DNA of 64,000 bases from Gammaproteobacteria bacterium (lineage in GTDB: Bacteria; Pseudomonadota; Gammaproteobacteria; JAJPIJ01), in NCBI GenBank assembly GCA_041395385.1, contig JAWLAN010000009.1, forward strand, positions 110,431 to 174,430, written 5' to 3'. Shown in pieces: positions 39,433 through 58,466 of this stretch. How positions within the stretch are numbered: position 1 is the first letter of the stretch; each line of letters begins with the position of its first letter. The notes below the pieces were generated by a model. The model made no database searches. It saw nothing but the letters and a program-made list of their open reading frames with translations, and had not been told where the DNA came from. The position numbers and the translations under genes were made by a program.

Positions 39433-39460
39433 TAGTCGTTTTGCGGTCCGGCGAAGGCGG

Positions 39461-39765
39461 CCAGCCGGGGCTTGCCTGGCTACCGCTCGCGGTACTTCCG
39501 TGTACCGCTCGCTACCGCGGCGTCGTGCTCGCTGTCCCTGCTGCGCGCGCCGCCGAGGCGCGCCAGGCAAGCCCCGGCTGACCGCCCGAACGTTCGGCAA
39601 ACCCTGATGGCGGCCTCGTGCCGGCTAGAGGGCGACATGCATTTGCGATCACGGCGCGTCGGTGTTCTCCGCCGTGGGCGGCACAACGCCCGGCAGACCG
39701 CCCGAACGCTCGTGAAATCTCCAAAATGGAAGTACCGCGAGCGGTAGCCAAGCAAGCCCCGGCAG
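39461..39765. repeat. REP-like mosaic of inverted and direct repeats (intergenic)
   Basis: Inverted repeats 39478-39499 vs 39728-39749 (22/22) and 39462-39480 vs 39562-39580 (19/19). Direct repeats taccgctcgc (x2) and accgcccgaacg(t/c)tcg (x2). Shares the 15-mer ccgcgagcggtagcc with 61805-61819. Confidence 0.7.
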
Positions 39766-39831
39766 AGCGCTATTGCCCACGCCCCGCTTCCGTCATGTGA
39801 AGAAAACAGTTGTCGACAGCTGGGCGGCGCG

Positions 39832-40593
39832 TCAGTGCGGGGCGAGGCCGCGCGGCTTATATAACCGCACGGCATTGTTGTACAGCGCGTTCTCGGCGAC
39901 GGCCGCGTCGAGCGCGTCGCGCAGGCGCCTGATGTCAGCGGGCTCGAAGGGGCGCGGTGCGCGCGTGGACGGCAGGTCGGTGCCGAACAGCAGCGCGTGC
40001 GGGTTGATGCTGGCAATCTCGCGCACCACCGGCACCGGGTCGAAGTCCAGCCGCCCGAAGCCGGAGGCCTTCACCTGCACGCCGCGCTCAACCAGCTTGT
40101 AGATGCAGCTCAGTCCCGCGCGCGACAGGCCGAGATGGTCAATGATCACCCGTGGCAGTCCGAGCAGCGTGCGCAGCAGATCGGGCAGTTCGCCGCCGTC
40201 GATGTACAGCTCCACGTGCCAGCCGGCCAGCGCGTGCACCCGGCGCGCGAGCGTGGGCAACTGCGAGATGTCCGCGGACCCGCCGCGGCGGATGTTGAAG
40301 CGTATCGCCCGCACTCCGGCCGCGTTCAAACGCAGGATCTCCTCGTCGCCCACTTCGGGCGGCAGCTGCGTGACGCCGACGAAGTTGGGGCCCAGCGCAT
40401 CGAGGGCGGCCAGCAGGTAGCTCTGGTCGAATCCCTGGAACGAGGCGGAGACGACCGCCCCGCCGACGATGCCGAGCGGGCGCGTGCCCTCGCGGTAATC
40501 CCCGGAGGTGTAGGCGTCGGGCAGGTAGCCCTGGTTCACGACCAGCGGGAAGGCCGGGTCGATGATGTGCAGGTGGCTGTCGAAGATCATCAT
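39832..40593 (-). CDS. amidohydrolase-2 family metal-dependent hydrolase (TIM barrel)
   Basis: Start MMIFDSHLHI (metal-binding HxH) and a conserved Asp/His pattern of the amidohydrolase-2 family. Confidence 0.65.
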   Translation of the reverse strand: MMIFDSHLHIIDPAFPLVVNQGYLPDAYTSGDYREGTRPLGIVGGAVVSASFQGFDQSYLLAALDALGPNFVGVTQLPPEVGDEEILRLNAAGVRAIRFNIRRGGSADISQLPTLARRVHALAGWHVELYIDGGELPDLLRTLLGLPRVIIDHLGLSRAGLSCIYKLVERGVQVKASGFGRLDFDPVPVVREIASINPHALLFGTDLPSTRAPRPFEPADIRRLRDALDAAVAENALYNNAVRLYKPRGLAPH

Positions 40594-40712
40594 GTTTCTG
40601 CCCCCCGCCTCCACCATGCCTGACCTATGGCCCGTGTCGCGTCGCCCGCGGTCGTCGAGGACCGCTGGTCACCATCCCGAAGGATAACCCGAATCACCGG
40701 CGAGCCGCCCGC

Positions 40713-41861
40713 TCAGGCACTGGCGAGATACTCCGCGGCGCGCGCGAGGCTGTCCAGGCTGTGCGCGGAGCCGATGTAATCGAGCATCTCCCGCAACGCC
40801 GGCGGAAACTCCCCCGCCGCACTGATGCCCTCTCGCCCCAATAGCGGATTCAGCCACAGTATGCGGTGCGCGCGCTGCCGCAATGCCCGCACGGCCTCGA
40901 TCAGATCCTCCGGGGCATCGCTGTCCAGGCCGTCGCTCAGGACCACGACGACGGTGCGCCGGTCCACGTAACGGCCGGCGTACTGCCGGTTGAAGTGGGT
41001 CAGCGACTCGGCGATGCGCGTGCCGCCCAGCCACAGCTCGTTGCGGCCCTCCAGCCGCTTGCGCAGGGCGTCGGCATTCACCTCGCGGTACAGGCCGGTG
41101 ACGCGGAACAGCCGGGTGTGGAACACGAAGGCCTCCGCATCCGGAAAGACGCGCAGCAGCCCGCGGCCGAAGCGCGTGAGCAGCGGGCTGTAGCTCGCCA
41201 TGGAGTGCGAGACGTCCTGCAGCCAGATGAGCCGCGGCGGCTCGCGACGCCGCTCCATGAAACGCAGGTGCACCGGCAGCCCGCCGGTGGCGAGATTGCG
41301 GCGCATGGTCCGGCGCATGTGGATGTGCGTGCCGCGCGCCACCTCGCGCCGCCGGCGCGTCAGGCGCCGGCGTATGCGCAGCGCCAGCCGCTCGGCCAGC
41401 ACCTCGATCTCGCGCTGGTCGCGGCGATCGGTGAGAAAGCGGAAGTCGCTGCGCGAGAGGGTGTTCTGGCGGCTCGCCCCGGCGCCGATCTGATGGATCT
41501 CCGCCGAATAGACGTTGTCCGGATCCATGGCGTGCGCCAGGCCGGTCAGGCCGCCGCGCTGTTCCCGGCGGCGGGCGAGCAGGCGCGGGTCGATCGTCTC
41601 CGCCGCGCTCAGCTCGTTGGGCAGGGGCGCGCGCGCCGGGTACCAGTAGTTCTCGAACAGGGCATCGAAGCGATGCCACTGCGCGCTGTCGTGGCAGCTG
41701 AGCGCGCGCAGTCCGGTGCGCAGGAACTCGGCGTCGAGCGGTTCGCTCAGCCCCGCGGTGCGCAGCGCGTCCAGCGTCTCCTGCACGCCGATGCCGTAGC
41801 CCTCGCGCCGGAGCGCGCGCACGAAGCCGGCGATCCGCTCGGCGGGCGCGTCCGGACGCAT
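40713..41861 (-). CDS. VWA domain-containing protein (CoxE-like)
   Basis: 382 aa with a C-terminal von Willebrand A domain (VVVVLSDGLDSD). Immediately downstream of the MoxR ATPase (1-nt gap). Confidence 0.65.
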   Translation of the reverse strand: MRPDAPAERIAGFVRALRREGYGIGVQETLDALRTAGLSEPLDAEFLRTGLRALSCHDSAQWHRFDALFENYWYPARAPLPNELSAAETIDPRLLARRREQRGGLTGLAHAMDPDNVYSAEIHQIGAGASRQNTLSRSDFRFLTDRRDQREIEVLAERLALRIRRRLTRRRREVARGTHIHMRRTMRRNLATGGLPVHLRFMERRREPPRLIWLQDVSHSMASYSPLLTRFGRGLLRVFPDAEAFVFHTRLFRVTGLYREVNADALRKRLEGRNELWLGGTRIAESLTHFNRQYAGRYVDRRTVVVVLSDGLDSDAPEDLIEAVRALRQRAHRILWLNPLLGREGISAAGEFPPALREMLDYIGSAHSLDSLARAAEYLASA

Positions 41862-41862
41862 C

Positions 41863-42753
41863 TCAGCCGGCGGCCTTGAAGAGCAGGCCGCGCAGGGTGG
41901 CGCCGTCCAGCCGCTGGCGATCCTCCTGCGTCTTCATCAGGCATCCCAGCGTGTCGATGATGCGCTCGGCGTTCTCGGGCAGCGAGGGGATCTCCAGCGC
42001 CATCAGCGCCGCCGCCCAGTCGAGCGTCTCGGCCACGCCGGGGCGCTTGCGCAGGTCGAGCGCGCGCACGCCGTGCACGAACTTCACGACCTGGCGCGCG
42101 AGTTGCGCGTTGATCCCGGGCAGCCGGTTCTCGACGATGCGCAGCTCCTTCTCCACGCCCGGGTAGTCGAGGAAGTAGTACAGGCAGCGCCGTCGCAGCG
42201 CGTCGCTCAGCTCGCGGGTGCCGTTGGAGGTCAGCATCACGTGCGGGATCGAGCGTGCGCGGATGGTCCCGAGCTCCGGGATGCTCACCTGCCAGTCCGA
42301 GAGCAGCTCCAGCAGATAGGCCTCGAACTGCTCGTCGGCGCGATCGATCTCGTCGATGAGCAGCACCGGCGGCCTATCCTGCGTGATCGCCTTCAGCAGC
42401 GGGCGCGGCAGCAGAAAGCGCTCGCTGAAGATCTCCGCCTCGGTCTGCGCGAGGGGACGATCGGAGTGCTCCTGCAGCTTCATCGCCAGCAGTTGATGGG
42501 CATAGTTCCATTCATAGACGGCCTGGCCCACGTCCAGACCCTCGTAGCACTGCAGGCGGATCACCTGCGTGTCGTGCGCGGCCGCATAGGCCTGCGCCAG
42601 CGCCGTCTTGCCCACGCCGGCGTCGCCCTCGAGCAGCAGCGGGCGCTCGAGGCTTTCCATGAGCAGCAGCGTGGTGGCGAGCGGCCGGTCGGCGATGTAG
42701 CCGGCGCGGGCGAGGCGATCGCTCAGCGCAAGGATGTCCAGGTTCGTGGTCAT
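41863..42753 (-). CDS. MoxR-family AAA+ ATPase (CoxD-like)
   Basis: Walker A LLEGDAGVGKT, Walker B LLIDEIDRADE, sensor motifs; 296 aa. Confidence 0.8.
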   Translation of the reverse strand: MTTNLDILALSDRLARAGYIADRPLATTLLLMESLERPLLLEGDAGVGKTALAQAYAAAHDTQVIRLQCYEGLDVGQAVYEWNYAHQLLAMKLQEHSDRPLAQTEAEIFSERFLLPRPLLKAITQDRPPVLLIDEIDRADEQFEAYLLELLSDWQVSIPELGTIRARSIPHVMLTSNGTRELSDALRRRCLYYFLDYPGVEKELRIVENRLPGINAQLARQVVKFVHGVRALDLRKRPGVAETLDWAAALMALEIPSLPENAERIIDTLGCLMKTQEDRQRLDGATLRGLLFKAAG

Positions 42754-42754: not shown

Positions 42755-43831
42755 TCAGCGGGCCTCGGCGCCGGCGGCGCGTTCGATGCGCGCGTGCAGC
42801 GCCTTGGTGCGATGGAAGGCGGCGATCGATTCGTGCACGAAGGTGAGCTTGCTGGTTATCTTCTCGGTGAGCACGAACGGATAGGCGTCGTGCTGGCCGA
42901 CGCTGCGGTTCATCTCGTTGAGCATGACGGTGAGCGAGGACCAGTCGGCGAGGCAGACCTGGAAGTCGTCCTCGCCGAGGGTCAGGTGCGTGAGCCCGAA
43001 GACGCCCGCGGTCTCCATGGCGTCGGCGATGTGCAGGTAATGCGCCCAGGTCTCGGCCCAGTCCTCCCAGGGGTGGGCGCGGGCGTAGGCGCTGATGTAG
43101 TCGCCGTGCCAGCGGCCCTTGTCGGCCTGTGCGTAATGCGCCTTCAGGGCGGCGGCGTAGTCGGCGCGCTCGTCGCCGAAGACGATGCGGAAGTTCTGCA
43201 GCCGGTTGGTCTCCTGCACCATCGGGCGCCAGTAGTAGTGACCGCTCTCGTGGCGGAAATGCCCGAGCAGCGTGCGGTAAGCCTCCACCATCTCGATGCG
43301 CGCGGACTCGCGCGCGGCCGGGTCGGCCTCCATCATGTTCACGGTGATGAGCCCGTTCAGGTGGCCGGTGCCGACGTATTCCTCATCGGCCCTGGGGTTG
43401 TAGCGCTTGTCGTCGCGGAAGGCGAAGGCCAGCCCCGATTCCGGATTCTGCAGCTTGCTGACGATGGGCAGCCGCAGCTCCAGCAGCGTGTACAGCATGC
43501 GGCGCTTGGCCGCCTCCATGTTCGTCCACCACAGCTGATAGCGCGGCTCCTCCAGGCTCGGCACCTCCTGGTTCAGGTTGCAGGCCAGGCAGTACTGCCC
43601 CGGGTCCTGCGCCGGCACCAGCCAGTTGCAGACGCTGTGGACGCGATAGTTGCGGCACAGGTGATAACCGCGCCGCGGGTCGCCGGCATCGCGGTAGGTG
43701 CGCCCCTCCTGCGGCTCGAGCGCGACCATGGCGCTGCGCGCCGGGTCGAAGCCCAGCTTGCGCTTGCAGCCCAGGCACTCGGTGTTCTCGAAGAACACCC
43801 GCCAGCCGCAGGTGCAGTAGTACGCCTTCAT
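42755..43831 (-). CDS. putative zinc-ribbon / HExxH zinc metallopeptidase family protein
   Basis: Start MKAYYCTCGWRVFFENTECLGCKRKLGF (zinc ribbon), then HESGHYYW (HExxH). Stop is 1 nt before the MoxR start. Confidence 0.55.
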   Translation of the reverse strand: MKAYYCTCGWRVFFENTECLGCKRKLGFDPARSAMVALEPQEGRTYRDAGDPRRGYHLCRNYRVHSVCNWLVPAQDPGQYCLACNLNQEVPSLEEPRYQLWWTNMEAAKRRMLYTLLELRLPIVSKLQNPESGLAFAFRDDKRYNPRADEEYVGTGHLNGLITVNMMEADPAARESARIEMVEAYRTLLGHFRHESGHYYWRPMVQETNRLQNFRIVFGDERADYAAALKAHYAQADKGRWHGDYISAYARAHPWEDWAETWAHYLHIADAMETAGVFGLTHLTLGEDDFQVCLADWSSLTVMLNEMNRSVGQHDAYPFVLTEKITSKLTFVHESIAAFHRTKALHARIERAAGAEAR

Positions 43832-44133: not shown

Positions 44134-45336
44134 ATGCCCGTCAGACAGAAAGCCTCGTTCGCCGACCGGCTCGATCAGCGCATCTTCAACGCGATCTACG
44201 CCCGCAGCCTCGTCTACAACACCTGCTGGGAGGACCCGGCCGTGGACCGCCGGGCGCTGGCGCTCACGCCCGAGGACACCATGCTGGTCATCACCAGCGC
44301 CGGCTGCAACGTGCTCGATTACGCGCTGACGGGCGTTAAGCGGATCCACGCCGTGGACGCCAATCCGCGCCAGACGGCGCTGCTCGAGCTGAAGCTCGCC
44401 GGCATCCGGCGCCTGGATTTCGAGGACTTCTTCCAGCTCTTCGGACGCGGCCACCATCCGCGCGCCGAGGCGCTCTACCACTTCGCGCTGCGCCGCGAGC
44501 TGAGCGGCTTCGCGCGCGCGTGGTGGGATCGGCGCATCGTCTGGTTCGCGCGCCGCGACAACAGCTTCTACTACCACGGCCTCGCCGGGGTGGTGGCGCG
44601 CGGCTTCCGGCGCTTCCTCAAGCTGCGGCCGCGGCTGGCCGCCGAGGTGCACGCGCTGTTCGAGGCCGACACCGTGCAGGCGCAGCGGCGCATCTACGAC
44701 GAGCGCATCGAGCCGGAGATGTGGGGGCCGCTGATGAACTGGCTGCTGTCGCGCCAGCTCACCATGAGCCTGCTCGGCGTTCCGTACCCGCAGCGCAGGC
44801 TGGTGCAGGCCCAGCACGAGCGGGGCGTGGCGGGCTTCATCCGCGAGAGCATCGAATACGTGATGCGCGAGCTGCCGCTGCGCGAGAACTATTTCTGGCG
44901 CGTGTACATACACGGCCGGTACACGCGCGAGTGCTGCCCGGAGTACCTGAAGCCGAGGAACTTCACGGCGCTGAAGGAGGGCATGGCCGAGTGCGTCAAT
45001 CCGAACACGTGCACAGTGACGGAGTTCCTGCACCTGAACCGTGATCGACTCAGCAAGCTCGTGCTGCTGGACCACATGGACTGGATGAGCACCTATTACC
45101 CGGAGGCGCTGGCGGAGGAATGGCACGCCATCCTGGCGCGCGCAGCCCCCGGCGCGCGCGTCATCTTCCGCAGCGCGCACGTCGATCCCGGCTACCTCGA
45201 CGGCGTCAGGGTCGGCAGCCACCGGCGACCGCTGCGCGAGGTGCTGTCGCTCGAGGAGGCCGAGGCCCGCACCCTCACCGCCCGCGATCGCGTGCACACC
45301 TACGCCGGCTTTTTCATCGGCGACATCCGCCCGTGA
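44134..45336 (+). CDS. btaA: BtaA-like S-adenosylmethionine:diacylglycerol 3-amino-3-carboxypropyltransferase (DUF3419)
   Basis: MPVRQKASFADRLDQRIFNAIYARSLVYNTCWEDPAVDRRAL... matches the BtaA/DUF3419 family. About 400 aa. Confidence 0.7.
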   Translation: MPVRQKASFADRLDQRIFNAIYARSLVYNTCWEDPAVDRRALALTPEDTMLVITSAGCNVLDYALTGVKRIHAVDANPRQTALLELKLAGIRRLDFEDFFQLFGRGHHPRAEALYHFALRRELSGFARAWWDRRIVWFARRDNSFYYHGLAGVVARGFRRFLKLRPRLAAEVHALFEADTVQAQRRIYDERIEPEMWGPLMNWLLSRQLTMSLLGVPYPQRRLVQAQHERGVAGFIRESIEYVMRELPLRENYFWRVYIHGRYTRECCPEYLKPRNFTALKEGMAECVNPNTCTVTEFLHLNRDRLSKLVLLDHMDWMSTYYPEALAEEWHAILARAAPGARVIFRSAHVDPGYLDGVRVGSHRRPLREVLSLEEAEARTLTARDRVHTYAGFFIGDIRP

Positions 45337-46037
45337 ATCACTCGCCGGGCGCCGAGACGCGGACCCTGCTCGCCATGCTGCGCGGGCAGCCGCGCGCGGG
45401 CTCTCATGCCGAACGGCTGCAGGCCTTCTACGCGCCGCAGGCCGCGCACTACGACCGCTTCCGCGAACGGCTGCTGCAGGGACGCGACGGGCTCCTGCAG
45501 CGGCTGCCGCTCGCGCCCGGCGCCACGCTGATCGACCTGGGCGGCGGCACCGGCCGCAACATCGAGTTCCTGGCCGCGCGCGTGCCGGCGCTGGCCCGTG
45601 TCGAACTGGTCGACCTCTGCCCGGCGCTGCTGGCGCAGGCGCGGCAGCGCTGCGGGCGCTGGCCCAACGTGCACCTCGTCGAGGCCGACGTCACGCACTA
45701 CCGGCCGGCGCAGGCGGCCGACGTGGTGCTCATGTCGTACGCGCTGACGATGGTCCCGGATTGGCGCCCGGCACTGCACAATGCGGTTGCGATGTTGCGG
45801 CCGGGCGGCACGCTGGGGGTCGTCGACTTCTGCCTCAGCGAGTCGCAGCCGCGCTGGCTCGGCGCCTTCTGGCGGCGCTGGTTCGCGCACGACGGCGTGC
45901 GCGTCTCGCGCGAGCACGCCGCGGTCCTGCGCGCCCTGTTGCCCGCGCACGAGTACGCCGAGCATCGCGCGCCGGTGCCGTACCTGCCGCTGCTGCAGGT
46001 GCCTTACTACCACTTTCTCGGCGCGAAGCCTCGCTGA
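45333..46037 (+). CDS. btaB: BtaB-like SAM-dependent N-methyltransferase
   Basis: Class I SAM-MTase motif (LIDLGGGTGRN). GTG start overlaps the btaA stop (GTGA); alternative ATG at 45375. Confidence 0.65.
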   Translation: MNHSPGAETRTLLAMLRGQPRAGSHAERLQAFYAPQAAHYDRFRERLLQGRDGLLQRLPLAPGATLIDLGGGTGRNIEFLAARVPALARVELVDLCPALLAQARQRCGRWPNVHLVEADVTHYRPAQAADVVLMSYALTMVPDWRPALHNAVAMLRPGGTLGVVDFCLSESQPRWLGAFWRRWFAHDGVRVSREHAAVLRALLPAHEYAEHRAPVPYLPLLQVPYYHFLGAKPR

Positions 46038-49574: not shown

Positions 49575-49587
49575 GTTCCACGGACGA

Positions 49588-50031
49588 TCACGCCAGGCCG
49601 CCGAAGCGGACGCCGACGCCGACCACCAGGAAGGCCACCGCGATGATCGTGACCGCGACGATGTGCATGGCGAGCACGGGCAGCGTGCGGGCATCGAGGC
49701 GCGGGATGACGCGCAGCCGCGCATTGAGGGCGAGCAGCACGGTCGCGGCCAGCAGGCCGAGCTTGGTCAGTATCAGCCAGCCCTGCGCGACGTTCGGCGC
49801 GAACCACGCGGATACGTCTGGCACCCAGTGGTGCGCGAGCCACAGGCCGGTCAGGACCTGGATGAGGAGCGCCGGCATGCCGACGCGCTCGTAGGCACCC
49901 TCGAAGTTCAACACCAGCGAGGGATCGCGCGTCCGCAGCGCGCGCGGCAGGATGGACAGTGCCAGCACGAGGTGCCCGCCGACCCATACCGCGGCGCCGA
50001 GCAGATGCAGAACGATAATGGTTCGGTACAT
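49588..50031 (-). CDS. CopD-family-like small membrane protein (4 TM)
   Basis: 147 aa hydrophobic ORF, MYRTIIVLHLLGAAVWVGGHLVLALSILP.... Confidence 0.5.
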   Translation of the reverse strand: MYRTIIVLHLLGAAVWVGGHLVLALSILPRALRTRDPSLVLNFEGAYERVGMPALLIQVLTGLWLAHHWVPDVSAWFAPNVAQGWLILTKLGLLAATVLLALNARLRVIPRLDARTLPVLAMHIVAVTIIAVAFLVVGVGVRFGGLA

Positions 50032-51112: not shown

Positions 51113-51733
51113 CTACGCCACGGACTTGCGCAGATGGCAGTACACGAACCGCTGCACGGCGCCCGTGGGCGTGACGTGCTCTTCCCTTTCGCAACGATGC
51201 AGCGAGAAGGCCTCGCCGAACTCGGCGTGCAGCTCCTCGGGGCTGTAGCGCACGACCGGCAGACCGCTGCACTTCGTCGGGCCATCCTCGGCAAAGGTGG
51301 CGATGATCACGTGTCCGCCCGGCCTCACGGCGTGCAGGATCGCGCTGATGTAGGTCATGCGATCCTCGGACACCGTGAGGAAGTGAAACACCGCCCGGTC
51401 GTGCCACACGTCGATGCAACGGCGGGGGAGGTTGATCGCCGTGATGTCGGCCTCGATCCAGCGGACCTCCAGCGCGCGCTCGCCGAGCCTGGCCTTGGCG
51501 GCCGCGATCGCCGCGCCGGAGATGTCGAGCACGGTGACATCCGTGTACCCCTCCGCCAGCAGATCCTCGGCGAGCGTGGAGGCCCCGCCGCCCACGTCGA
51601 TGATCGATGCGTTCCTGCCTACGCCGGTGGCGCGGATCAGGCTCAGCGAACGATCCGCGTGCGCCTGGTACCAGCTCACCGCGTTCGCGGCCCGGCTGGC
51701 GTAGACCTGCTCCCAATGCTCTTTCGGTCGCAT
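51113..51733 (-). CDS. class I SAM-dependent methyltransferase
   Basis: Start MRPKEHWEQVY. Motif I IIDVGGGASTLAEDL. Confidence 0.7.
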   Translation of the reverse strand: MRPKEHWEQVYASRAANAVSWYQAHADRSLSLIRATGVGRNASIIDVGGGASTLAEDLLAEGYTDVTVLDISGAAIAAAKARLGERALEVRWIEADITAINLPRRCIDVWHDRAVFHFLTVSEDRMTYISAILHAVRPGGHVIIATFAEDGPTKCSGLPVVRYSPEELHAEFGEAFSLHRCEREEHVTPTGAVQRFVYCHLRKSVA

Positions 51734-51754
51734 GATGGCGCCTCGCACGGGCCA

Positions 51755-52216
51755 TCATACGCCGGCGATCCCACGGGCGTGAACGGCGCGCGCGGCCAGC
51801 AGCGCCACGGTCATCGCCAGCACCCAGATGGTGAAGGCCGCGAGCGGGTGATTGCCCACCGCGACCAGGCTCATGAGGAACGGCAGGAGGAACAACTCGC
51901 CCGCGTGGCGCGCGTCGCCCGTGCCGTGCAGGTAGGCGGTCGAGGCCGCCGCCACAATCAACGGCAGGACGAGACCGGCGAGGAAGAGCGCCAGCCGATC
52001 GGTGAAGCCGATGAACAGGACCCAGCAGTTGACGAGCATGGTCACCGGCACGATGACCACCGAGGCGGCCACCAGGGCGAGCGGCGCCCATTCCCTCCCG
52101 CGTCCCGTGACGACCACCAGGTAGACGATGAACGCCGCCAGCAGCACGATCGGCAGCGCATTGCCCAGCCAGAATTTCCTCGCGACCGTGGCGCGTGCGT
52201 CCATGCCGCCCATCAT
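51755..52216 (-). CDS. hypothetical membrane protein (4 TM)
   Basis: Hydrophobic ORF MMGGMDARATVARKFWLGNALPIVLLAAFIV... inside longer track ORF 51755..52435. Start uncertain. Confidence 0.4.
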   Translation of the reverse strand: MMGGMDARATVARKFWLGNALPIVLLAAFIVYLVVVTGRGREWAPLALVAASVVIVPVTMLVNCWVLFIGFTDRLALFLAGLVLPLIVAAASTAYLHGTGDARHAGELFLLPFLMSLVAVGNHPLAAFTIWVLAMTVALLAARAVHARGIAGV

Positions 52217-52307
52217 CCGGCGGCGGCCCCGTGCGAGGCAAGCGGGGCCGGGCCCGCGCCGTGCAGGCGTTCCTCCTGGTAAGTCTGTGCGGTCGGGTGA
52301 TTGCCCC

Positions 52308-52961
52308 TCAGTCGCGATCCGGCGCGCCGAGCGGGAAGTAATGGCGATACGGCCGCGCCTCGTCCACGGCGCGCGCGAAGGACGGCCGCGCCAGCAGCCG
52401 CTGCCGGTAGGCGCGGACGTTCGCGTGCGCCTCACCGATGGGGTGCACCCAGTCGGCGTAGAAGAGCGACGGCGCGGCGGCGCAGTCCGCGAGGCTGAAA
52501 TCGCCGCCCGCCGCCCACGCGCGCCCGTTCATGGTCTTCTCCAGCCAGCCGTAGGCGGTGTCGAGCATCGTGTGCGCGTCGGCCACGCCCGCCGGATCGC
52601 GGCTGTCCTCGGGGCGCAGCCTGTCGAAGACGATCTTCTGCATCGGCGTCATCACGTAGTTGTCGAAGAAGCGGTCCATGAACCGCACCTCGAGCGCCGC
52701 GCGCGGGTCCCCGGGGACGAGGCGCACGGGGCCGGGGTGATGCAGCCCCAGGTACTCGATGATGATGGTCGCCTCCGGCAGGGTGCGGTCGCCGTCCACC
52801 AGCACCGGCATCTTCTTGATGGGCCACAGCGCCGCGTGCTCGGCCGCGATCTGCGCATCGCCCACCGCGAGCAGGCGGTATTCGAACGGCGTGCCGTTCT
52901 CGTAGAACGCGATCAGCACCTTCTGGCAGTAGGAGGAAAAGGGGTGGGCGTAGAGCTTCAT
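52308..52961 (-). CDS. glutathione S-transferase
   Basis: MKLYAHPFSSYCQKVLIAFYENG (thioredoxin-like N-domain) and a C-terminal GST domain; 217 aa. Confidence 0.8.
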   Translation of the reverse strand: MKLYAHPFSSYCQKVLIAFYENGTPFEYRLLAVGDAQIAAEHAALWPIKKMPVLVDGDRTLPEATIIIEYLGLHHPGPVRLVPGDPRAALEVRFMDRFFDNYVMTPMQKIVFDRLRPEDSRDPAGVADAHTMLDTAYGWLEKTMNGRAWAAGGDFSLADCAAAPSLFYADWVHPIGEAHANVRAYRQRLLARPSFARAVDEARPYRHYFPLGAPDRD

Positions 52962-53150: not shown

Positions 53151-53663
53151 TCAGGTTTCGTTGCGCGCCCGCACCTGCGGCAGCCAGATGAGGTCCGTGA
53201 CCCCGTAGTCCTTGCCGCACTGGCTCAGCAGGGCCGTGACCTGACCGCGGTGGTGCGTCTGGTGGTTGAAGAACTGCGCCACGGCCACCCACATCTCGTA
53301 CGTGCGCGGCGCGGGATTGACGATGGTGGTGAACCGAAGCTGCCCGGCGAGCGCCTCGTCGGTGAGCGAGGTCGCCCAGCCGACGATGTCCCCGTCGGTG
53401 CGCTCGCGCTCGCGGCGCAGCTCATCGAAGTCGGCGTACAGCTCCTCATCGAGGCCCCTGGGCCTGAACTGAGTGCCCTGGAAGCGCGACAGCCACACCC
53501 GGTCGCCCACCAGCAGGTGATTGAGCGTGCCGTGGATGGACTTGAAGAACACGCCGCGGTCCTGGCGGCGCTCCGCGTCGCTGAGCTCGGCGCACACGGC
53601 GTACAGCCGCTGGTTCATCCACTGGTTGTAGGTTGCCAGGTCCCGCGCCAGGTTGGCGTGCAT
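53151..53663 (-). CDS. DinB/YfiT-family damage-inducible protein
   Basis: Start MHANLARDLATYNQWMNQRL; His triad of the DinB_2 fold. gaggga SD. Start 3 nt after the yciI-like stop. Confidence 0.75.
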   Translation of the reverse strand: MHANLARDLATYNQWMNQRLYAVCAELSDAERRQDRGVFFKSIHGTLNHLLVGDRVWLSRFQGTQFRPRGLDEELYADFDELRRERERTDGDIVGWATSLTDEALAGQLRFTTIVNPAPRTYEMWVAVAQFFNHQTHHRGQVTALLSQCGKDYGVTDLIWLPQVRARNET

Positions 53664-53665: not shown

Positions 53666-54055
53666 CTAGTCCCTCGGCGTCTCGTTGGTCACGTTGTAGG
53701 CGCTGGCGCGCTCCAGCTCGACGGGCCGCACCTCGTAATAAAGGCCGCAGGCGAGGCACGGATTCTCCGCCGCGATGCGCGCCGCCTCATCGAGGCTGTC
53801 GGCGAGGATGAACCAGTAGCCGCCGATCACCTCCTTGGACTCGCTGTAGGGGCCGTCGGTTACCACCTCGCGCCGGACGATCCTGCCCTCGGTCGCGAGC
53901 CGCTGCCCGGGCTTCATCCTACCCTCGGCCACGAGCCGATCCTTCCAGACGTAGAACGCGTCGATCGCGGCCTGGATCTCCTCCGGCGAGCGGTCCCTGT
54001 CCCACTGCCCGCGGGAGACGACGAGGTATTCCGACATGGCGGCATTCCTGTTCAT
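53666..54055 (-). CDS. YciI family protein
   Basis: 129 aa with the YciI/DGPF pattern (MSEYLVVSRGQWDRDRSPEEIQAAIDAFYVWKDRL...GGYWFILADSLDEA). Probable true start MSEYLVV at 54037. Confidence 0.7.
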   Translation of the reverse strand: MNRNAAMSEYLVVSRGQWDRDRSPEEIQAAIDAFYVWKDRLVAEGRMKPGQRLATEGRIVRREVVTDGPYSESKEVIGGYWFILADSLDEAARIAAENPCLACGLYYEVRPVELERASAYNVTNETPRD

Positions 54056-54165: not shown

Positions 54166-54858
54166 CTATTCTCCCGCGCGTATGAAGCGCAGCGGGTGCG
54201 GCTGGCCCGCCGCGTAGATGTAGAGAAAGGAATCCCTGATCTCGACGCGTTCGGCTTCCTGCAGCGCGCCCAGGTAGTCGCGCTCCTGGCGCATGACCTC
54301 CTCGCCGCAGGACATGCGCGTCGTCGCCAGCGGGCCGAAGGCGATGCGATGCCCCGCGACCGTCGCCCCGCCGCGGAACTGGTTGCAGGAGCCGTTGCCG
54401 ACGACCTGCCCCTGCTCGAGAAACTCCAGGGTGGCCTGCACGTCGTCGATCACGGCGCCACCGGCGAGCTCCTCCAGGCGCCAGGACGTCGACCACAATG
54501 CGGGGACGCCGGCCGCCTCGCCGCTCCGCTGCCTCACTCGCAGTAGTTCGATCATCGGCCCGACCATGCCGATCGACATCATGTCGTCGCGGCGACGCGC
54601 ATCGGCCTCGACCGCCATGCCCTCCTGCCGGAAGGCCTCGGGCAGGTTGGTGGGGTGGTATTGCGTGCCCTCCGCGTCGCGGATCACGAACAGGCCGCCC
54701 TCCACGTCGAGATGATGGACCGTCCCGGCGATACGCTCGACCGATCCGGGTTCCGGAGACGGTGTCTCGAGCTCCACCCAGCGCTCGCCGCCCATGCCGG
54801 CGCATGACGTGACGATGCTCATTGCGGCTGAAACCAGAACGATCCTCCAGGTCACCAT
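54166..54858 (-). CDS. META (HslJ-like) domain-containing lipoprotein
   Basis: Signal/lipobox (IVTSC) and a C-terminal META domain (WRLEELAGG...NQFRGGATVAGHRIAFGPLATTRMSC). Confidence 0.6.
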   Translation of the reverse strand: MVTWRIVLVSAAMSIVTSCAGMGGERWVELETPSPEPGSVERIAGTVHHLDVEGGLFVIRDAEGTQYHPTNLPEAFRQEGMAVEADARRRDDMMSIGMVGPMIELLRVRQRSGEAAGVPALWSTSWRLEELAGGAVIDDVQATLEFLEQGQVVGNGSCNQFRGGATVAGHRIAFGPLATTRMSCGEEVMRQERDYLGALQEAERVEIRDSFLYIYAAGQPHPLRFIRAGE

Positions 54859-54873: not shown

Positions 54874-55332
54874 TCAGGCCTCTCCGCGCCCGTGCCGGGC
54901 GGCGAGTATGGCAAGCGTAGCGGGATCGGGCTTGCCCGCAAAGTACTTGTTCAACGCCTCGGCGAACACCTTTTCCGAGTCGGCGACCTCGGCGAAGAGG
55001 GTGCAGCAGGACCGGAACTTGGCCGCGTCGACCGAGCCGAAGATCTCCACGGCGCCGAGGCCATCGTGCGCGTTCACCGCCGCCACGCACTCGCGCAGGC
55101 GGGCGCCGAGGACCGGATGCCCGAGATACGCGCGCGCCTCGGCGGGCGAGCCGATGGCGTAGCGCCTGGACATCGCGCTGGTGCCCAGCCCCTCGATCTG
55201 CGGCAGGACGTACCAGATCCAGTGCGTGCGCTTCCGGCCCGCGCGCAGCTCGGCGAGGGCTTGCGGGTAGCTCGTCTCCTGAGCCGTTACGAAGCGATCA
55301 AGGTCGTAGGGATCCGATCGTGTCGTCGGCAT
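54874..55332 (-). CDS. DUF1810 family protein
   Basis: 152 aa with the DUF1810 pattern (PYDLDRFVTAQETSYPQALAELRAGRKRTHWIWYVLPQ). Confidence 0.65.
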   Translation of the reverse strand: MPTTRSDPYDLDRFVTAQETSYPQALAELRAGRKRTHWIWYVLPQIEGLGTSAMSRRYAIGSPAEARAYLGHPVLGARLRECVAAVNAHDGLGAVEIFGSVDAAKFRSCCTLFAEVADSEKVFAEALNKYFAGKPDPATLAILAARHGRGEA

Positions 55333-55460: not shown

Positions 55461-55700
55461 TTACGCGACGTTCTGAAGCCTGTTGGCATAGTCGCGGCCC
55501 GATGTGGCGGGAGGCAATGGTTTCCCATCGGCCCGGTAAAGCTCAATCGCCTCTTCGACAATCTGGCACAGCTCGTCAAAGACCGCCTTCTCGTCTTGCC
55601 CATGACACCCGGCATAGATCAGCCCCGGGGCGCTCCCGACATAACATTGGTCCTCCTCGGACCACTCGACGATCTTTACGTACCTCGCACTGTCTTTCAT
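55461..55700 (-). CDS. hicB: HicB-family antitoxin (UPF0150/HicB N-terminal domain)
   Basis: 79 aa, MKDSARYVKIVEWSEEDQCYVGSAPGLIYAGCHGQDEKAVFDELCQIVEEAIELY, matching the HicB N-domain fold. ATG overlaps the upstream hicA remnant stop (ATGA). Confidence 0.6.
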   Translation of the reverse strand: MKDSARYVKIVEWSEEDQCYVGSAPGLIYAGCHGQDEKAVFDELCQIVEEAIELYRADGKPLPPATSGRDYANRLQNVA

Positions 55701-55892
55701 TTCTTCGATTCCTCAATCGCCAGATGCACGGCTCGGACTTGGTAATGCCGGGCATCCTCGCCCAGACTTCCTGAAATTGTAACCGGTTCCGCGACCTTCG
55801 GATGCACGAAGTTCCTGTGACTCCCTTTTCCTCCCCGGTCCACTTAGCCGGCGCGCTTCAGTTCAGCGATCAAACTCTGATCTTGCGCGCAT
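55697..55892 (-). pseudogene. hicA: hicA toxin gene remnant (frameshift + in-frame stop)
   Basis: Three-frame reconstruction: MRARSEFD (frame 1) / IAELKRAG* (frame 3, TAA where HicA has Trp) / VDRGGKGSHRNFVHPKVAEPVTISGSLGEDARHYQVRAVHLAIEESKK, which carries the HicA KGSHxxFxHP signature. Confidence 0.5.
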
Positions 55893-56104
55893 TTGTGCTC
55901 CCTGTCATTCAAATCGAATAACGTTGAGCATGACCGGCGCCCAAATAGCGGACGAAGGCCGCTGTTTAGGCGTCCGTGTCGATGCGCGTGTTAGAGCGCA
56001 CAAGCCTGTAAATTGACCGTAAATAGGTAGTGGCGACGGCGTTTGGGCCCGGGCCCTCACCGGCGCTGGTGCCTCCACGAAAAAGAATGCAGCAGCTTCT
56101 GATG

Positions 56105-57112
56105 TCAGATGCCCGAGGGCGGCATGGTGACGACGATCTTGCCCTTCGCGCGCCCCTGTTCCACATATGCCATCGCATCGAGCGTCTCGTCGAATGGGAA
56201 CGTGCGGTCGAGCACCGGACGCAGGGTGCCCGCATCATAGAGAGCGGCTAACGTCTTCAGTTGCGCGCCATCGGCCCGCATGAAGAAGAACGAGTAGCGC
56301 ACGCCTAGCTTCCTTGCCCGCGCCCGCACCTTGCGGCTCATCAGTGCCAACACAGGCCTCAGTAGTGGCCGGCCGACCTGCTCGGCGAACGCAGCGTCCG
56401 GTGGGCCGACGACGCTGATCGCCAGGCCACCAGGTTTGAGCACGGTCAGCGACTTCGCGAGGTTGTCGCCACCAAGGGAGTCGAGCACGACGTCGTAGCC
56501 GGAGAGCAACTCGGCGAAGTCTGCCTTGGTGTAGTCGATGACTTCGTTCGCGCCGAGGCCGCGCACCTTCTCCTCGTCGTTGCCGTGCGCAGTGGTGGCG
56601 ACGTATGCGCCCAGGTGCTTGGCGAGCTGGACGACTGTCGAGCCCAGTCCGCCCGCGCCAGCGTGAACGAGGACCTTCTGCCCCGGCTTGACCCGCGCGA
56701 GGTTGACCAGCGCCTGCCACGCGGCAAGCGCGACCAGCGGGACCGCCGCAGATTCTTCCATCGTGAGTGAGTTCGGCTTGAGGGCGATGTCCGCATAGTC
56801 GATGGCGATGTACTCCGCGAAGGCCCCGATACGCAGGTCGCGGGGTCGGGCGTAGATCTCGTCGCCGACTTTGTAGTCCCGCACCTCGGCGCCGACCCGC
56901 GTCACTACGCCCGCGACGTCGTGTCCGAGCACGAACGGCGTTTTGTACTTCAGGAGCAGCTTGAACTCGCCGTTGCGGACCATCTTGTCCAGCGGGTTGA
57001 TGCTGGCAGCACCCACCCGGACCAGAACGTCACGCGGCCCGATGGTGGGATCTGGCACTTGGGCAGCGCGGAGGCCGCTCTTGCCATAATTCTCGACGAC
57101 GAATGCCTTCAT
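56105..57112 (-). CDS. NADPH:quinone oxidoreductase / zinc-binding MDR family protein (Qor-like)
   Basis: 335 aa; GHDVAGVV and the NAD(P)-binding motif HAGAGGLGSTVVQLAK. Confidence 0.8.
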   Translation of the reverse strand: MKAFVVENYGKSGLRAAQVPDPTIGPRDVLVRVGAASINPLDKMVRNGEFKLLLKYKTPFVLGHDVAGVVTRVGAEVRDYKVGDEIYARPRDLRIGAFAEYIAIDYADIALKPNSLTMEESAAVPLVALAAWQALVNLARVKPGQKVLVHAGAGGLGSTVVQLAKHLGAYVATTAHGNDEEKVRGLGANEVIDYTKADFAELLSGYDVVLDSLGGDNLAKSLTVLKPGGLAISVVGPPDAAFAEQVGRPLLRPVLALMSRKVRARARKLGVRYSFFFMRADGAQLKTLAALYDAGTLRPVLDRTFPFDETLDAMAYVEQGRAKGKIVVTMPPSGI

Positions 57113-57201
57113 AACAGACCGCCTGTTGTGCGACGATTTCTGGGCTCTTGGTGGTGGTCGATGGTACGCTGCCGTTATCCCGTCATATGCGCTCTAACGT
57201 C

Positions 57202-57861
57202 CTAGCTAACCGGCGTGCCCAGCTGTTCGGGCACGTCCGGTTGAGCGCCTTGTTGGGCATTGAAGTTCATCGTTATGCGCGGCATTTTCACAGTGCTAAA
57301 GCATATCCGCGCATCGGCCTCTCGCCCCCACCACTCATCGATAGTGAATTGCATGGAGCCGCACGACAGCCAGTAGTGCCCATTGTTGATTCGTTGGCCG
57401 GCGTTGGCCTCTGAGAACACCACGGCCGCAAGCAGCGCAAAATTGATGGTGTCTGGAATGATCATTTCCTGCTGGCCGATGGTTATGGATCGGTGCTCGT
57501 TGCTCTGCCTCAGAACAACACCGAATCCTTTCGGAATATCGGTGCCATGAACGAGGTTGCACCGAAAGATTTCGTATACAACTTCCGAAAATAAAGATGG
57601 CCGATTCTTCAGCGCGATCCACGTGAACTTTGTTTCTTCCAAATTGATGCCAATTGCCAGCATGGGTTCGATAACCCACAGATAGCGATTGAAGGTATCA
57701 ACGAACCGGTCACGCACTCCTTTTTGTGGAAAGAGTAGCGCGCCAGTGCCGTCGAGTGCGGCGCACGCATGCATCAAGGCGGAGCCTAGCTTCCCATTTC
57801 CTGCATCATCGAGCGCGTAGGCGACTCGCTGCGCCATGTTCATCATAATGATGCCCAACAT
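57202..57861 (-). CDS. hypothetical protein in low-GC island (no recognisable family)
   Basis: ORF of 219-254 aa in the only roughly 50% GC segment of the window (about 57.2-58.0 kb). Start uncertain (Met at 57861/57846/57837; AT-rich promoter-like sequence at 57930-57990). Confidence 0.45.
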   Translation of the reverse strand: MLGIIMMNMAQRVAYALDDAGNGKLGSALMHACAALDGTGALLFPQKGVRDRFVDTFNRYLWVIEPMLAIGINLEETKFTWIALKNRPSLFSEVVYEIFRCNLVHGTDIPKGFGVVLRQSNEHRSITIGQQEMIIPDTINFALLAAVVFSEANAGQRINNGHYWLSCGSMQFTIDEWWGREADARICFSTVKMPRITMNFNAQQGAQPDVPEQLGTPVS

Positions 57862-58466
57862 TGAATTAGACAGTCGGCAGGAATAAATGAGATGGACAGA
57901 GTCCGTATAGTTCTTGTCATGGCGCGGTCTCGAAATCGTATATAACCGCCTATTTGTACAAGGCAACAGCCACGCAGATGCTTTTCAATTCCGACGGGAA
58001 ATGCAGCCGGTCCCGGCGTGAAGAGTCGAGCGACAGGAAGCTCAGGGCACACGACCACCGATCCTGCCGTCTTGGGCTTGCGCAATTGCACTGCGCAATG
58101 TCCGCTACAGGGGAATACGAACTGTCTCCTTCTGGCCGATTGGTCCGGCCCCTGCACACGGCCGTGCTGCGGTGTTGCGCCATGAGGCGGCGGGTGCCCG
58201 AGAGGGAAGCACTGAGAATGGAGGGCACAACCATCCGCATGACTCCTTGTCGGGGCGGCGCACGCGGCGCCGCGGTTGCTGCTAAAGCATAGCAGCCGGA
58301 TTTGGATTGGGGGAAGCGAATAGGGGGAATGGAAGTCGGGGTTGGCTTGGCGGCGCGGTGGAATCCCCTTGGCCCGCTCATTTAAAAGGTGGGAGCAACG
58401 CGATCTTCAAGGGGGAACCGGATGGGAGGCGGCGGAAGACGCGCGGCGAACTGGTAGAATGCCGCC

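Follow-up and report, generated by a model that had tools for sequence, protein, structure and literature searches.

A 19-kb zone of accessory genes between the core genes prmB and aroC in an uncultured gammaproteobacterial lineage

Classical genomic islands are associated with tRNA genes, bear integrases, are flanked by direct repeats and have an atypical GC content. Accessory genes are also found in hotspots of gene turnover, which are named regions of genomic plasticity or flexible genomic islets as well. In many hotspots no mobile elements can be recognized, and recombination is seen at the flanking core genes (Oliveira, Touchon, Cury & Rocha 2017, PMC5635113). In E. coli, prmB and aroC belong to one cluster (PMC11878033), and a bacterial btaA-btaB operon for the betaine lipid DGTS has been described (Riekhof et al. 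2005, as cited in PMC10685587).

The locus described here lies in a window of 64,000 nucleotides (the whole stretch of DNA analysed) from an uncultured gammaproteobacterial lineage of roughly 68% GC. prmB and aroC have the same order and strand as in E. coli K-12, but they are 19 kb apart instead of 34 bp. Like the turnover hotspots, the segment has the same two core-gene bounds, a variable accessory or strain-specific content, and no integrase or transposase genes; unlike a typical species-level hotspot, most of its content is maintained throughout the sampled clade (81-94% nucleotide identity) and its turnover is slower, as judged from five metagenome-derived genomes and not from a species pangenome. 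It shares with classical islands a large accessory block that breaks synteny and, at one end, a toxin-antitoxin remnant and a low-GC gene with homologs near integrases elsewhere. It differs from them in the lack of an integrase, a tRNA and direct repeats, in the native composition of about 16 of the 19 kb, and in a gene order common to relatives with core-like divergence. The 19 kb very probably represent an old, vertically inherited chromosomal plasticity zone between two core genes, in which cassette turnover is ongoing.

Boundaries, composition and gene content

The prmB gene ends at 39432 (TAA stop at 39430-39432) and aroC starts at 58467, leaving 19,034 bp between them, in exact agreement with the preliminary description, which had placed the two plus-strand genes 19 kb apart. 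The 306-aa prmB product has the same sequence as P0001 of an NCBI Gammaproteobacteria MAG and scores 375 bits against TIGR03533 (cut-off 229.7). Pfam matches bore out the genes listed earlier (Amidohydro_2, VWA_CoxE, AAA/MoxR-like, Peptidase_Mx, DUF3419 (BtaA) with a SAM methyltransferase, MFS, MgtC/DUF4010, GNAT, CopD, two methyltransferases, GST, DinB, YCII, META and a Qor-like zinc-type dehydrogenase); the DUF1810 gene was missing from that list (Table 1).

Table 1. Features of the prmB-aroC interval and its core flanks, in window coordinates
Feature	Position	Strand	Evidence and remarks
prmB (50S ribosomal protein L3 Gln N5-methyltransferase)	38512..39432	+	left core flank; TIGR03533 equivalog
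REP-like nested palindromic repeats	39450..39785	.	between convergent prmB and amidohydrolase genes
Amidohydro_2 family hydrolase	39832..40617	-	PF04909 E 9.6e-22; putative oldest layer
VWA_CoxE protein	40713..41861	-	PF05762 E 1.3e-50
MoxR-like AAA ATPase	41863..42753	-	AAA_5/AAA domains; 94-99% aa identity in close relatives
Peptidase_Mx zinc metallopeptidase, N-terminal zinc ribbon	42755..43831	-	PF15887 E 2.1e-94, PF10005; putative oldest layer
btaA-like gene (DUF3419)	44134..45336	+	PF11899 E 1.9e-112; variable cassette together with btaB
btaB-like SAM methyltransferase	45333..46037	+	Methyltransf_25/11/23; start overlaps btaA stop
MFS transporter	46169..47575	+	PF07690 E 7e-45; 87-97% aa identity, all close relatives
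MgtC/DUF4010 membrane protein	47598..48845	+	PF13194, PF02308; variable, missing from R86 (blastn)
DUF202 remnant, residues 1-67 of 124	48885..49085	-	tblastn with R89 DUF202 protein, 76%
GNAT acetyltransferase	49098..49589 (left end approximate)	-	PF00583 E 2.4e-12
CopD-family membrane protein	49588..50031	-	PF05425; 90-94% aa identity in R89 and R86
SAM methyltransferase (UbiE/COQ5-like)	50147..50950	-	conserved in R89 and R86
Second SAM methyltransferase	51113..51748	-	89-90% aa identity in R89 and R86
Small conserved ORF (59 aa in R89)	51758..51931	-	tblastn 90% aa
Glutathione S-transferase	52308..52961	-	GST_N, GST_C; 91-96% aa identity in L089, R89, R86
DinB-family protein	53151..53663	-	PF05163 E 2.1e-27
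YCII-related protein	53666..54055	-	PF03795; variable, missing from L089
META-domain protein	54166..54858	-	PF03724; variable, missing from R86
DUF1810 protein	54874..55332	-	PF08837 E 2.7e-57; last shared gene before hypervariable site
hicB-like small ORF	55461..55700	-	by position only; 4-bp overlap with hicA remnant
hicA pseudogene	55697..55912	-	in-frame TAA 55844-55846 in place of conserved Trp
Zinc-type quinone oxidoreductase-like (Qor) dehydrogenase	56105..57112	-	ADH_zinc_N_2, ADH_N; window-specific at site
Low-GC Rv1289-family gene (PF27329)	57202..57861	-	likely start about 57843
Conserved, apparently non-coding stretch	57862..58466	.	directly upstream of aroC
aroC (chorismate synthase)	58467..59570	+	right core flank; PF01264 E 1.7e-132; ATG at 58467

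GC content is host-like (0.68-0.73) over 39.4-55.3 kb and falls only at 55.3-58.4 kb. The genes common to relatives resemble the backbone (GC3 0.87-0.95, CAI 0.66-0.84), and about 16 of the 19 kb have host-like codon usage. GC and codon-usage profiling, which had been proposed as a check on insertion, pointed to foreign DNA in the GNAT gene (GC3 0.81, CAI 0.60) and in 55405-57857, and not in the remainder. The atypical genes of the latter block are the hicB-like ORF (GC3 0.71, CAI 0.43), hicA (GC3 0.57, CAI 0.38), Qor (GC3 0.83, CAI 0.61) and the Rv1289-family gene (GC 0.535, GC3 0.645, CAI 0.40), the last confirming the low-GC gene reported upstream of aroC. Together these pieces amount to about 3 kb and are the only ones that look foreign and recently imported.

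At the left end, the repeat mosaic noted earlier is real: it contains complementary arms of 50 nt (86% complementary) and 25 nt (96%), neither of which occurred in shuffled sequences, and its RNA fold has z = -7.65. The element occupies the identical site in all close relatives, as about one unit in R89, L082 and R86; L081 and the window have a fuller array. Beyond the segment, at 61707-61847, there is a related copy. Being conserved at its site and present elsewhere, the element was ruled out as the mark of an island boundary.

Shared scaffold and cassette turnover among relatives

The close relatives are four independent assemblies whose PrmB is 98, 93, 89 and 86% identical. All relatives are metagenome assemblies, so that some calls of presence or absence could be due to assembly or binning. 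The relative at 93% comes in two contigs (L082/L083 and L089); between its CopD and GST genes lie a PAS-domain gene and a stretch that was not seen. We observed 98.8% identity to L081 over 20.5 kb, and an identical scaffold gene set and order in L082, R89 and R86. Nucleotide identity was 81-94% in the blocks of the segment versus 84-94% in the backbone, and protein identity 77-100% versus 84-99%. Four relatives thus keep the genes in order at backbone-like divergence. The preliminary description had named such shared order as a sign of ancient, stable organisation, and its proposal of an insertion does not hold for the bulk of the segment.

More distant loci contain part of this content. In L093 (PrmB 81%), prmB is followed by the amidohydrolase and Peptidase_Mx genes without VWA/AAA, and in L001 (PrmB 67%) a 5.4-kb gap holds both genes plus others. 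The amidohydrolase orthologs adjoin prmB or aroC (64% aa identity in L093, 66% in L001), and those of Peptidase_Mx are 79% and 70% identical, respectively. The two genes have a different relative order in L001, where they may have been acquired independently. The VWA_CoxE gene is present in all four close relatives and missing from L093 and L001; VWA/AAA and the remaining genes are restricted to the closer clade. This layered build, together with at least eight cassettes that differ between close relatives, agrees with the mosaic, accreted pattern described earlier.

Several cassettes illustrate this turnover. The btaAB pair occurs in the relatives at 98% and 93% (a 234-aa btaB ortholog was called in L081 and L082); in R89 an 862-aa P-type ATPase takes its place, and in R86 a 237-aa ATPase fragment. 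In its domains and arrangement, a DUF3419/BtaA-family gene followed by an overlapping SAM-methyltransferase gene, the pair resembles the btaA-btaB operon as cited in PMC10685587; unlike that operon, it behaves as an exchangeable cassette, for which sister genomes have a P-type ATPase instead. The MgtC, VIT1, VOC-type, YCII and META genes vary by presence or absence: VIT1 lies between the two methyltransferase genes in R89 and R86 and is lacking in the window, and 51932-52265 is not common to R89 or R86 (blastn), where a VOC (3-dmu-9_3-mt) gene occupies this place. The DUF202 gene is intact in L082, R89 and R86 and truncated here, where it adjoins the GNAT gene, which has no counterpart in R89 or R86.

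The content could also be read as a coherent adaptive islet, selected as a unit under nutrient- or metal-limitation stress and not a neutral dumping ground, with roles in membrane lipid remodelling, Mg/metal transport and detoxification. Such a reading is compatible with the hotspot mechanism, to which it adds co-selection or co-regulation. It would fit a phosphorus-free betaine lipid as the product of btaAB (BtaA/BtaB reaction, PMC10685587), the MgtC, CopD and MFS genes here, the P-type cation ATPase and VIT1 at matching positions in relatives, PsiE (PF06146) in L089, and the long same-strand run CopD-MT-MT-GST-DinB-YCII-META-DUF1810, which is maintained in relatives. However, the functions derive from domain families only, there are at least four transcription directions or units, and the cassettes are individually dispensable among close relatives, so we regard selection as a unit as rather unlikely.

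The window-specific block beside aroC

Homology to the relatives stops at about 55385-55405, and the block 55405-57857 was seen in one contig only, this one. The aroC-proximal site is filled in four different ways: the insert measures 2.45 kb here, 369 bp in R89 and 6.2 kb in L089, and in R86 it is a 273-aa membrane ORF. The Qor gene was not found at this site in L089, R89 or R86.

The toxin-antitoxin remnant reported at this end of the segment was upheld in part. A hicA-type frame, a 4-bp overlap and then a small acidic ORF, with low GC and a sporadic location, recall HicAB type II systems. The repaired hicA reading scored 33.6 bits to HicA_toxin (PF07927; cut-off 27), compared with 22.1 for the fragment alone, which supports a hicA remnant broken by the TAA. 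Unlike in HicAB, the toxin frame has a stop at the conserved Trp codon and the downstream ORF has no HicB profile match, so that only a remnant is present; the hicB label is positional, the ORF having found no support from Pfam, NCBIfam, PHROGs or PDB sequences. Moreover, the Qor and low-GC genes intervene before aroC. The PF27329 assignment of the low-GC gene comes from the precomputed label of its homologs (233 representative clusters); in L095 and L124 such homologs directly adjoin phage-type integrases. Taken together, the 2.45-kb block resembles what is left of the cargo end of an integrative element after decay.

Presence in a single contig of a MAG and a sharply different composition would also be expected of a chimeric join with DNA from another organism, and the nearest Rv1289-like copy (L096, 88.8% nucleotide identity) shares only the ORF, its flanks being different. 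Such a mis-assembly is quite improbable: both flanks (the DUF1810 promoter region and the aroC upstream region) are collinear with relatives, a chimera would need a clean 2.45-kb internal insertion, other relatives hold different insertions exactly there, which indicates a genuine variable site, and the hicA pseudogene suggests residence and decay.

Beyond the block, 57857-61596 is 91.7% identical to L089 in nucleotides, although the 105-aa ORF called in L089 is only 73% identical in amino acids. Since aroC is uncoupled from prmB by 19 kb, it must presumably have its own promoter, probably within 57862-58466, a stretch with no match in Rfam or to the sigma-70 consensus.

Ancestral contiguity and origin of the segment

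As the preliminary description had stated for other Proteobacteria, prmB and aroC are normally adjacent: among 37 diverse gamma- and betaproteobacterial loci carrying both genes, prmB directly precedes aroC in 27, with gaps of at most 150 bp. It had also proposed that the segment splits a contiguous pair, and this is what L088 and L002 reveal, where the two genes touch at a clean junction within the backbone of the window (kinase/ferredoxin/MutS/HtpG/prmB, then aroC/MFS). Because the genes are contiguous in E. coli, in these 27 loci and in the two same-backbone genomes, their separation is, on these comparisons, the derived state.

The opposite polarity, in which the ancestor had the genes apart and a deletion or a convergent rearrangement brought them together in L088, L002 and others, draws on the fact that the pair is not fixed, the available upstream sequence (3 kb or more) showing no prmB in 38 of 80 related loci, and on the quite different neighbourhood in L087 (PrmB 75%). 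It is nevertheless very improbable, as repeated precise deletions of 15-19 kb giving an operon-like junction of 20-70 bp would be unparsimonious, and identities of 58-67% versus 81-100% suggest that the contiguous genomes are outgroups to all those with the segment.

We found no integrase or transposase in the segment by Pfam over its ORFs, since every gene-sized ORF belongs to a non-mobility Pfam or homolog family and no gap could accommodate an integrase; no tRNA was found in it, and no direct repeats flank the segment or its cassettes. Together with the host-like codon usage, this argues against an island acquired horizontally in the usual sense. A single recent island, integrated in one event (site-specific or by an integrative element) and later deprived of its integrase, is hardly credible and appears largely refuted by the relatives: it would account for the heterogeneous content and for ends marked by a structured repeat on one side and, on the other, by a low-GC gene with a toxin-antitoxin remnant, but not for a gene order kept down to 86% PrmB identity, native composition, missing mobility features, intermediate relatives holding only part of the content, or a repeat of a native family.

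A plasticity zone of long standing would instead have formed in layers. Starting from aroC immediately after prmB, the gap would have opened long ago and received first the amidohydrolase and Peptidase_Mx pair, and then the VWA/MoxR genes, transporters, methyltransferases and small stress-type enzymes (GST, DinB, YCII, META, DUF1810). This scaffold would afterwards have been passed down vertically with the backbone, while single cassettes kept arriving, being exchanged and decaying at fixed junctions, most of all in the hypervariable site just upstream of aroC, the latest arrivals here probably being the GNAT gene and the 2.45-kb block (hicB-like, hicA pseudogene, Qor-like, Rv1289-family). Turnover may proceed by allelic exchange, through homologous recombination in the conserved flanks, and by illegitimate insertions and deletions, and aroC would now be transcribed from its own promoter. 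Because most genes are common to relatives in order and only small cassettes look recent, the zone is a known kind of feature, an ordinary gene-turnover hotspot and not a mobile island.

Boundaries and gene content of the prmB-aroC interval

The interval between the + strand genes prmB and aroC extends exactly from 39433 to 58466 in a window whose GC content is about 68%. The PrmB product (306 aa) is identical to P0001 of an NCBI Gammaproteobacteria MAG, and Pfam scans bore out the gene list of the preliminary description, including the aroC-proximal low-GC gene (57202-57861, GC 0.535).

Features of the prmB-aroC interval and its two bounding genes (window positions)
Feature	Position	Strand	Evidence
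prmB	~38512-39432	+	NCBIfam equivalog TIGR03533, 375.5 bits (cut-off 229.7)
Amidohydro_2	39832-40617	-	Pfam
VWA_CoxE	40713-41861	-	Pfam
MoxR-like AAA ATPase	41863-42753	-	Pfam
Peptidase_Mx with zinc ribbon	42755-43831	-	Pfam
DUF3419/BtaA	44134-45336	+	PF11899, E 1.9e-112
SAM methyltransferase overlapping btaA	45333-46037	+	Pfam
MFS transporter	46169-47575	+	Pfam
MgtC/DUF4010	47598-48845	+	Pfam
GNAT	about 49098-49589	-	Pfam
CopD	49588-50031	-	Pfam
Methyltransferase 1	50147-50950	-	Pfam
Methyltransferase 2	51113-51748	-	Pfam
GST	52308-52961	-	Pfam
DinB	53151-53663	-	Pfam
YCII	53666-54055	-	Pfam
META	54166-54858	-	Pfam
DUF1810	54874-55332	-	Pfam
hicB-like ORF, 79 aa, overlapping the hicA stop	55461-55700		label by gene order/position only
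Zinc-type dehydrogenase (Qor-like)	56105-57112	-	Pfam
aroC	starts 58467	+	PF01264, E 1.7e-132, 441.5 bits (cut-off 27)

The DUF3419 gene is followed by the SAM methyltransferase gene in one operon, with the start of the second overlapping the stop of the first at 45333-45336. No NCBIfam model matched BtaA; by domain content and operon layout, the two genes are a predicted betaine-lipid synthesis pair, btaA-btaB. PADLOC, applied to the MoxR/VWA/peptidase genes, hicAB, Qor and the low-GC gene, returned chance-level scores and no defence-system match. Outside the interval, a PP2C-type phosphatase-like ORF, judged only from its sequence, lies at 25698-26531 (- strand) between an FHA-like ORF and a CHASE2 Ser/Thr kinase gene, in a local GC dip (0.60 vs about 0.68). 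On the other side, to the right of aroC and an MFS gene, an Anbu-like (proteasome-type) gene is found within 60816-63900, after which the relatives carry Alpha-E and circularly permuted ATP-grasp genes.

The repeat mosaic at the left end of the interval is real, since the nested inverted repeats at 39450-39785 were absent from shuffled sequences and the RNA fold had a z of -7.65. It corresponds to a REP-like palindromic element (core GGCTACCGCTCGCGGnAC) placed between the convergent prmB and amidohydrolase genes. Its interpretation as an island boundary did not hold, because it belongs to a native repeat family that occupies the same position in relatives and has a related copy beyond the segment, at 61707-61847. 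This outer copy is also present in R86 (the relative with 86% PrmB identity) and is missing from L089 (right-flank contig of the 93% relative) and R89 (the 89% relative). At the prmB-amidohydrolase spacer, about one unit is found in R89, R86 and L082 (left-flank contig of the 93% relative), and a fuller array in the window and in L081 (the 98% relative). REP-like elements were also considered as marks of the cassette junctions and rejected, given that, apart from this spacer, the core motif is absent from them.

Ancestral state of the junction and conservation of the scaffold

A search of species-representative genomes with the AroC of the window yielded 80 loci with 70-83% identity. An upstream prmB on the same strand was present in 37 of them, at a distance of 150 bp or less in 27, of 0.15-3 kb in nine, and of 5.4 kb in L001 (PrmB 67%); in a further 38 loci, for which 3 kb or more upstream of aroC was available, prmB was not found there. 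In L088 (PrmB 66%) and L002, prmB and aroC are touching and the backbone of the window is retained on both sides, with the MutS and HtpG genes to the left (and, in L088, the CHASE2 kinase, DUF4124 and ferredoxin genes farther left), and the MFS and Anbu-like genes to the right. Since both loci keep this backbone with the pair together, the separation seen in the window would be derived, a polarity based on identity levels and parsimony. These two junctions, as well as the 27 loci with short gaps, support the earlier proposal that an ancestrally contiguous pair was interrupted. The same core flanks (left, HtpG-prmB; right, aroC-MFS-Anbu-like) enclose intervals of 19.0 kb in the window, 18.6 kb in R89, 14.6 kb in R86, 5.4 kb in L001, and about 20-70 bp in L088 and L002; for the 98% and 93% relatives, each contig shows one flank (L081 and L082 the left, L089 the right).

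Gaps of 0.7-2.5 kb between prmB and aroC were observed in nine other gammaproteobacterial lineages (L004, L006, L007, L011, L024, L031, L035, L047 and L052), and from these small insertions the junction may have taken up DNA repeatedly. The same backbone varies at another small site, the mutS-htpG junction (~35.8 kb in the window), where toxin-antitoxin modules are found in L088 (Phd/ParE, 5515-6113) and L092 (RES-Xre, 2756-3943), and none in the window.

Relatives were identified through a PrmB homolog search, which gave a graded series, and the AroC 90% cluster, and their neighbourhoods were read from their contigs; an exact look-up of the AroC of the window gave no match. All the compared genomes are metagenome assemblies: GCA_964464715.1 (98%, L081), ENA and JGI 3300025310 (93%, L082/L083 and L089), GCA_022071965.1 (R89, merged from L084 and L090) and GCA_022072255.1 (R86, merged from L086 and L091). 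R89 and R86 span the entire interval, L081 stops just past MgtC, and the 93% relative was seen up to CopD and again from GST. As far as these contigs reach, they share the order amidohydrolase-VWA-AAA-Peptidase_Mx, MFS, CopD and the two methyltransferase genes, GST-DinB-(YCII)-(META)-DUF1810, and aroC. This scaffold is present in the relatives with 98, 93, 89 and 86% PrmB identity, and its absence is limited to those with about 66% or less. The blocks of the insert are 81-94% identical in nucleotides to R89, R86, L082 and L089, and those of the backbone 84-94% (one L089 block reaches 95.7%); at the protein level, the identities are 77-100% and 84-99%, respectively. L081 is 98.8% identical to the window across 20.5 kb.

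According to these data, the segment is not a recently acquired island. The preliminary description had taken the same genes in the same order in relatives as evidence against a simple insertion, and this is the arrangement found in the four relatives, with a divergence similar to that of the backbone. No integrase, recombinase or transposase gene was detected in the segment or at its edges; all gene-sized ORFs belong to other families, and the gaps left between assigned ORFs are 605 bp or shorter. The tRNA/tmRNA scan of the 64 kb was negative, and Rfam gave no match at the gathering threshold over the entire window, nor at E values up to 1 over 55.3-58.5 kb. Direct repeats of 11 nt or more were found neither between the segment ends nor around the cassettes, and the only microhomology at segment or cassette ends was a 7-mer at the GNAT site.

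Composition, which had been suggested as a test for an island, led to the same result. The shared genes (GC3 0.87-0.95, backbone-referenced CAI 0.66-0.84) are indistinguishable from the flanking core genes, and the only outliers are GNAT and the region 55405-57857, exactly the window-specific pieces. Their GC3/CAI values were 0.81/0.60 for GNAT, 0.83/0.61 for Qor, 0.71/0.43 for the hicB-like ORF, 0.57/0.38 for hicA and 0.65/0.40 for the low-GC gene, a contrast with the shared genes far larger than the slight contamination of the codon reference by an HtpG row with coordinates one base out of frame. The segment thus differs from a classical integrase-mediated island in lacking an integrase, a tRNA/att site with direct repeats, a host-unlike composition, and absence from close relatives. 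The earlier interpretation as accreted island DNA is partly supported: the derived, accreted and mosaic character of the insertion stands, and a recent acquisition of the segment does not.

Cassette turnover within the interval

Two more distant loci indicate how the interval was layered. In L093 (PrmB 81%), prmB is followed by the amidohydrolase and Peptidase_Mx genes, with VWA/AAA absent, and the 5.4-kb gap of L001 contains both genes (Peptidase_Mx 70% aa, amidohydrolase 66% aa) together with Endo_dU and membrane ORFs; therefore, the amidohydrolase and peptidase pair would be the oldest tenant. Directly after Peptidase_Mx, L093 carries a transglutaminase/DUF2126 gene (6873-7802), which belongs to the same kind of system as the Anbu-like, Alpha-E and ATP-grasp genes.

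At least eight cassette differences were found among the close relatives. The window shares the btaAB block (43979-46124) with the 98% and 93% relatives, and R89 has instead an 862-aa P-type cation ATPase (15717-18305), of which R86 retains a 237-aa N-terminal fragment (15776-16489, L086 coordinates), a cassette in decay. Since btaAB is host-like in composition, it would represent an older gain or come from a donor of similar composition. MgtC is missing from R86. L082, R89 and R86 carry an intact DUF202, of which the window keeps residues 1-67 (48885-49085), adjoining GNAT, which was not seen in R89 or R86. These two relatives also carry VIT1 between the two methyltransferase genes and a VOC-type (3-dmu-9_3-mt) gene upstream of GST; the window is devoid of VIT1, and at the VOC position has 334 bp (51932-52265) that cannot be aligned to either. 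YCII is missing from L089, and META from R86. No remnants of the ATPase, VIT1, VOC or L089-block genes were detected in the window, where the only matches to the cassette sequences of the relatives were the DUF202 fragment, a 59-aa ORF and a 105-aa pseudo-ORF region.

The aroC-proximal site shows four different fillings. Homology with the relatives ends at ~55385-55405, in the DUF1810 promoter region, and restarts in the region upstream of aroC, at 57857 (vs L089), 58154 (vs R89) or 58406 (vs R86). R89 has 369 bp at this site, R86 a 273-aa membrane ORF, and L089 a 6.2-kb block (3217-9387) with SDR, DUF1428, two RibD_C, PsiE, VOC, DUF3825 and STAND (nSTAND1/AAA_16) NTPase genes; the DUF3825 and STAND NTPase genes recall defence genes. 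The filling of the window (2.45 kb), seen in this contig only, comprises the hicB-like ORF, a hicA pseudogene, the Qor-like gene and the low-GC gene.

The proposal of a hicB gene with a broken hicA was confirmed for its second element. Read on the minus strand from a TTG at 55912, hicA has an in-frame TAA (55844-55846) at exactly the position of the Trp conserved in HicA proteins; the repaired 71-aa product reaches 33.6 bits with PF07927 (HicA_toxin, cut-off 27), and the 48-aa fragment alone 22.1. The hicB label relies on position, and this ORF had no match in Pfam, NCBIfam, PHROGs or PDB sequences. Unlike a HicAB toxin-antitoxin system, this locus has no intact HicA_toxin frame and no HicB recognizable by profile or structure.

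The low-GC gene is a member of the Rv1289 family; we retrieved 39 homologs, all with the precomputed label PF27329 and up to 90% identical, from a family of 233 representative clusters that includes an Enterobacter member with 52% identity. In L095 and L124, a phage-type integrase lies directly upstream of the homolog; in L153 the neighbour is a Fic gene, and other homologs are beside housekeeping genes. In the closest metagenomic copy (L096, 88.8% nt), the common part is the ORF only, and the flanks differ. The protein has a conserved R-x4-H motif; its predicted structure (pLDDT 87) gave no convincing match among solved structures, tblastn against plasmid and phage collections gave no match, and a literature search on PF27329 found nothing. 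The integrase-adjoining homologs and the decayed hicA suggest that the 2.45-kb cassette was once the cargo end of an integrative element and has since eroded.

The last 605 bp before aroC (57862-58466) lie in a block with 91.7% nucleotide identity to L089, whereas the ORF called there reaches only 73% amino-acid identity, and for this reason the stretch is probably non-coding. It has a lowered GC content (about 0.56-0.6), no Rfam family and no sigma-70 consensus; in both boundary spacers, scanning for sigma-70 and terminator consensus sequences gave nothing informative. A promoter or leader of aroC may reside in these 605 bp.

Proposed mechanism and significance of the cassette exchange

These results show a prmB-aroC junction that was opened in the distant past and a vertically inherited scaffold, on which discrete cassettes are gained, replaced and decay at fixed junctions, with neither mobility genes nor target-site repeats. 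Related genomes would swap cassettes through homologous recombination within the conserved sequence on either side, the model proposed for hotspots devoid of mobile elements (PMC5635113), and illegitimate insertions and deletions may add to this exchange. Uncoupled from prmB, aroC would now be transcribed from the conserved 605-bp stretch. With the same core flanks and a content that varies among related genomes, the segment resembles a chromosomal hotspot or region of genomic plasticity, and is a further instance of this well-known, mobile-element-free kind.

A much broader reading considers the prmB-aroC junction as a recurrent insertion hotspot across Gammaproteobacteria, given that 10 of the 37 loci have inserts of 0.7-5.4 kb; here, the aroC-proximal sub-site would be where integrase-less cassettes of defence or toxin type land, and one of these carries an Rv1289-family protein, possibly a new HEPN-like toxin or abortive-infection factor encoded by a single gene and usually carried beside integrases. 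We consider this reading, taken as a whole, improbable. Only two leads are mildly novel, namely the uncharacterised Rv1289-family gene, a likely mobile cargo gene, and the possible repeated use of the junction in other lineages; current understanding is unchanged by these findings.

The prmB-aroC junction offers a worked example of an operon-like core pair that was pried apart, and of a gap that has long served for the storage and exchange of accessory genes without mobile-element machinery; for annotation, it illustrates that a large accessory block between core genes is not equivalent to a recent island. Judging by domain names, a functional theme of phosphorus-free lipid, Mg/metal transport and small detoxification enzymes is plausible. 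For this uncultured lineage, the cassettes indicate that strains differ in their membrane lipids (btaAB), in the transport of cations (P-type ATPase, MgtC, VIT1) and in their set of small detoxification enzymes.
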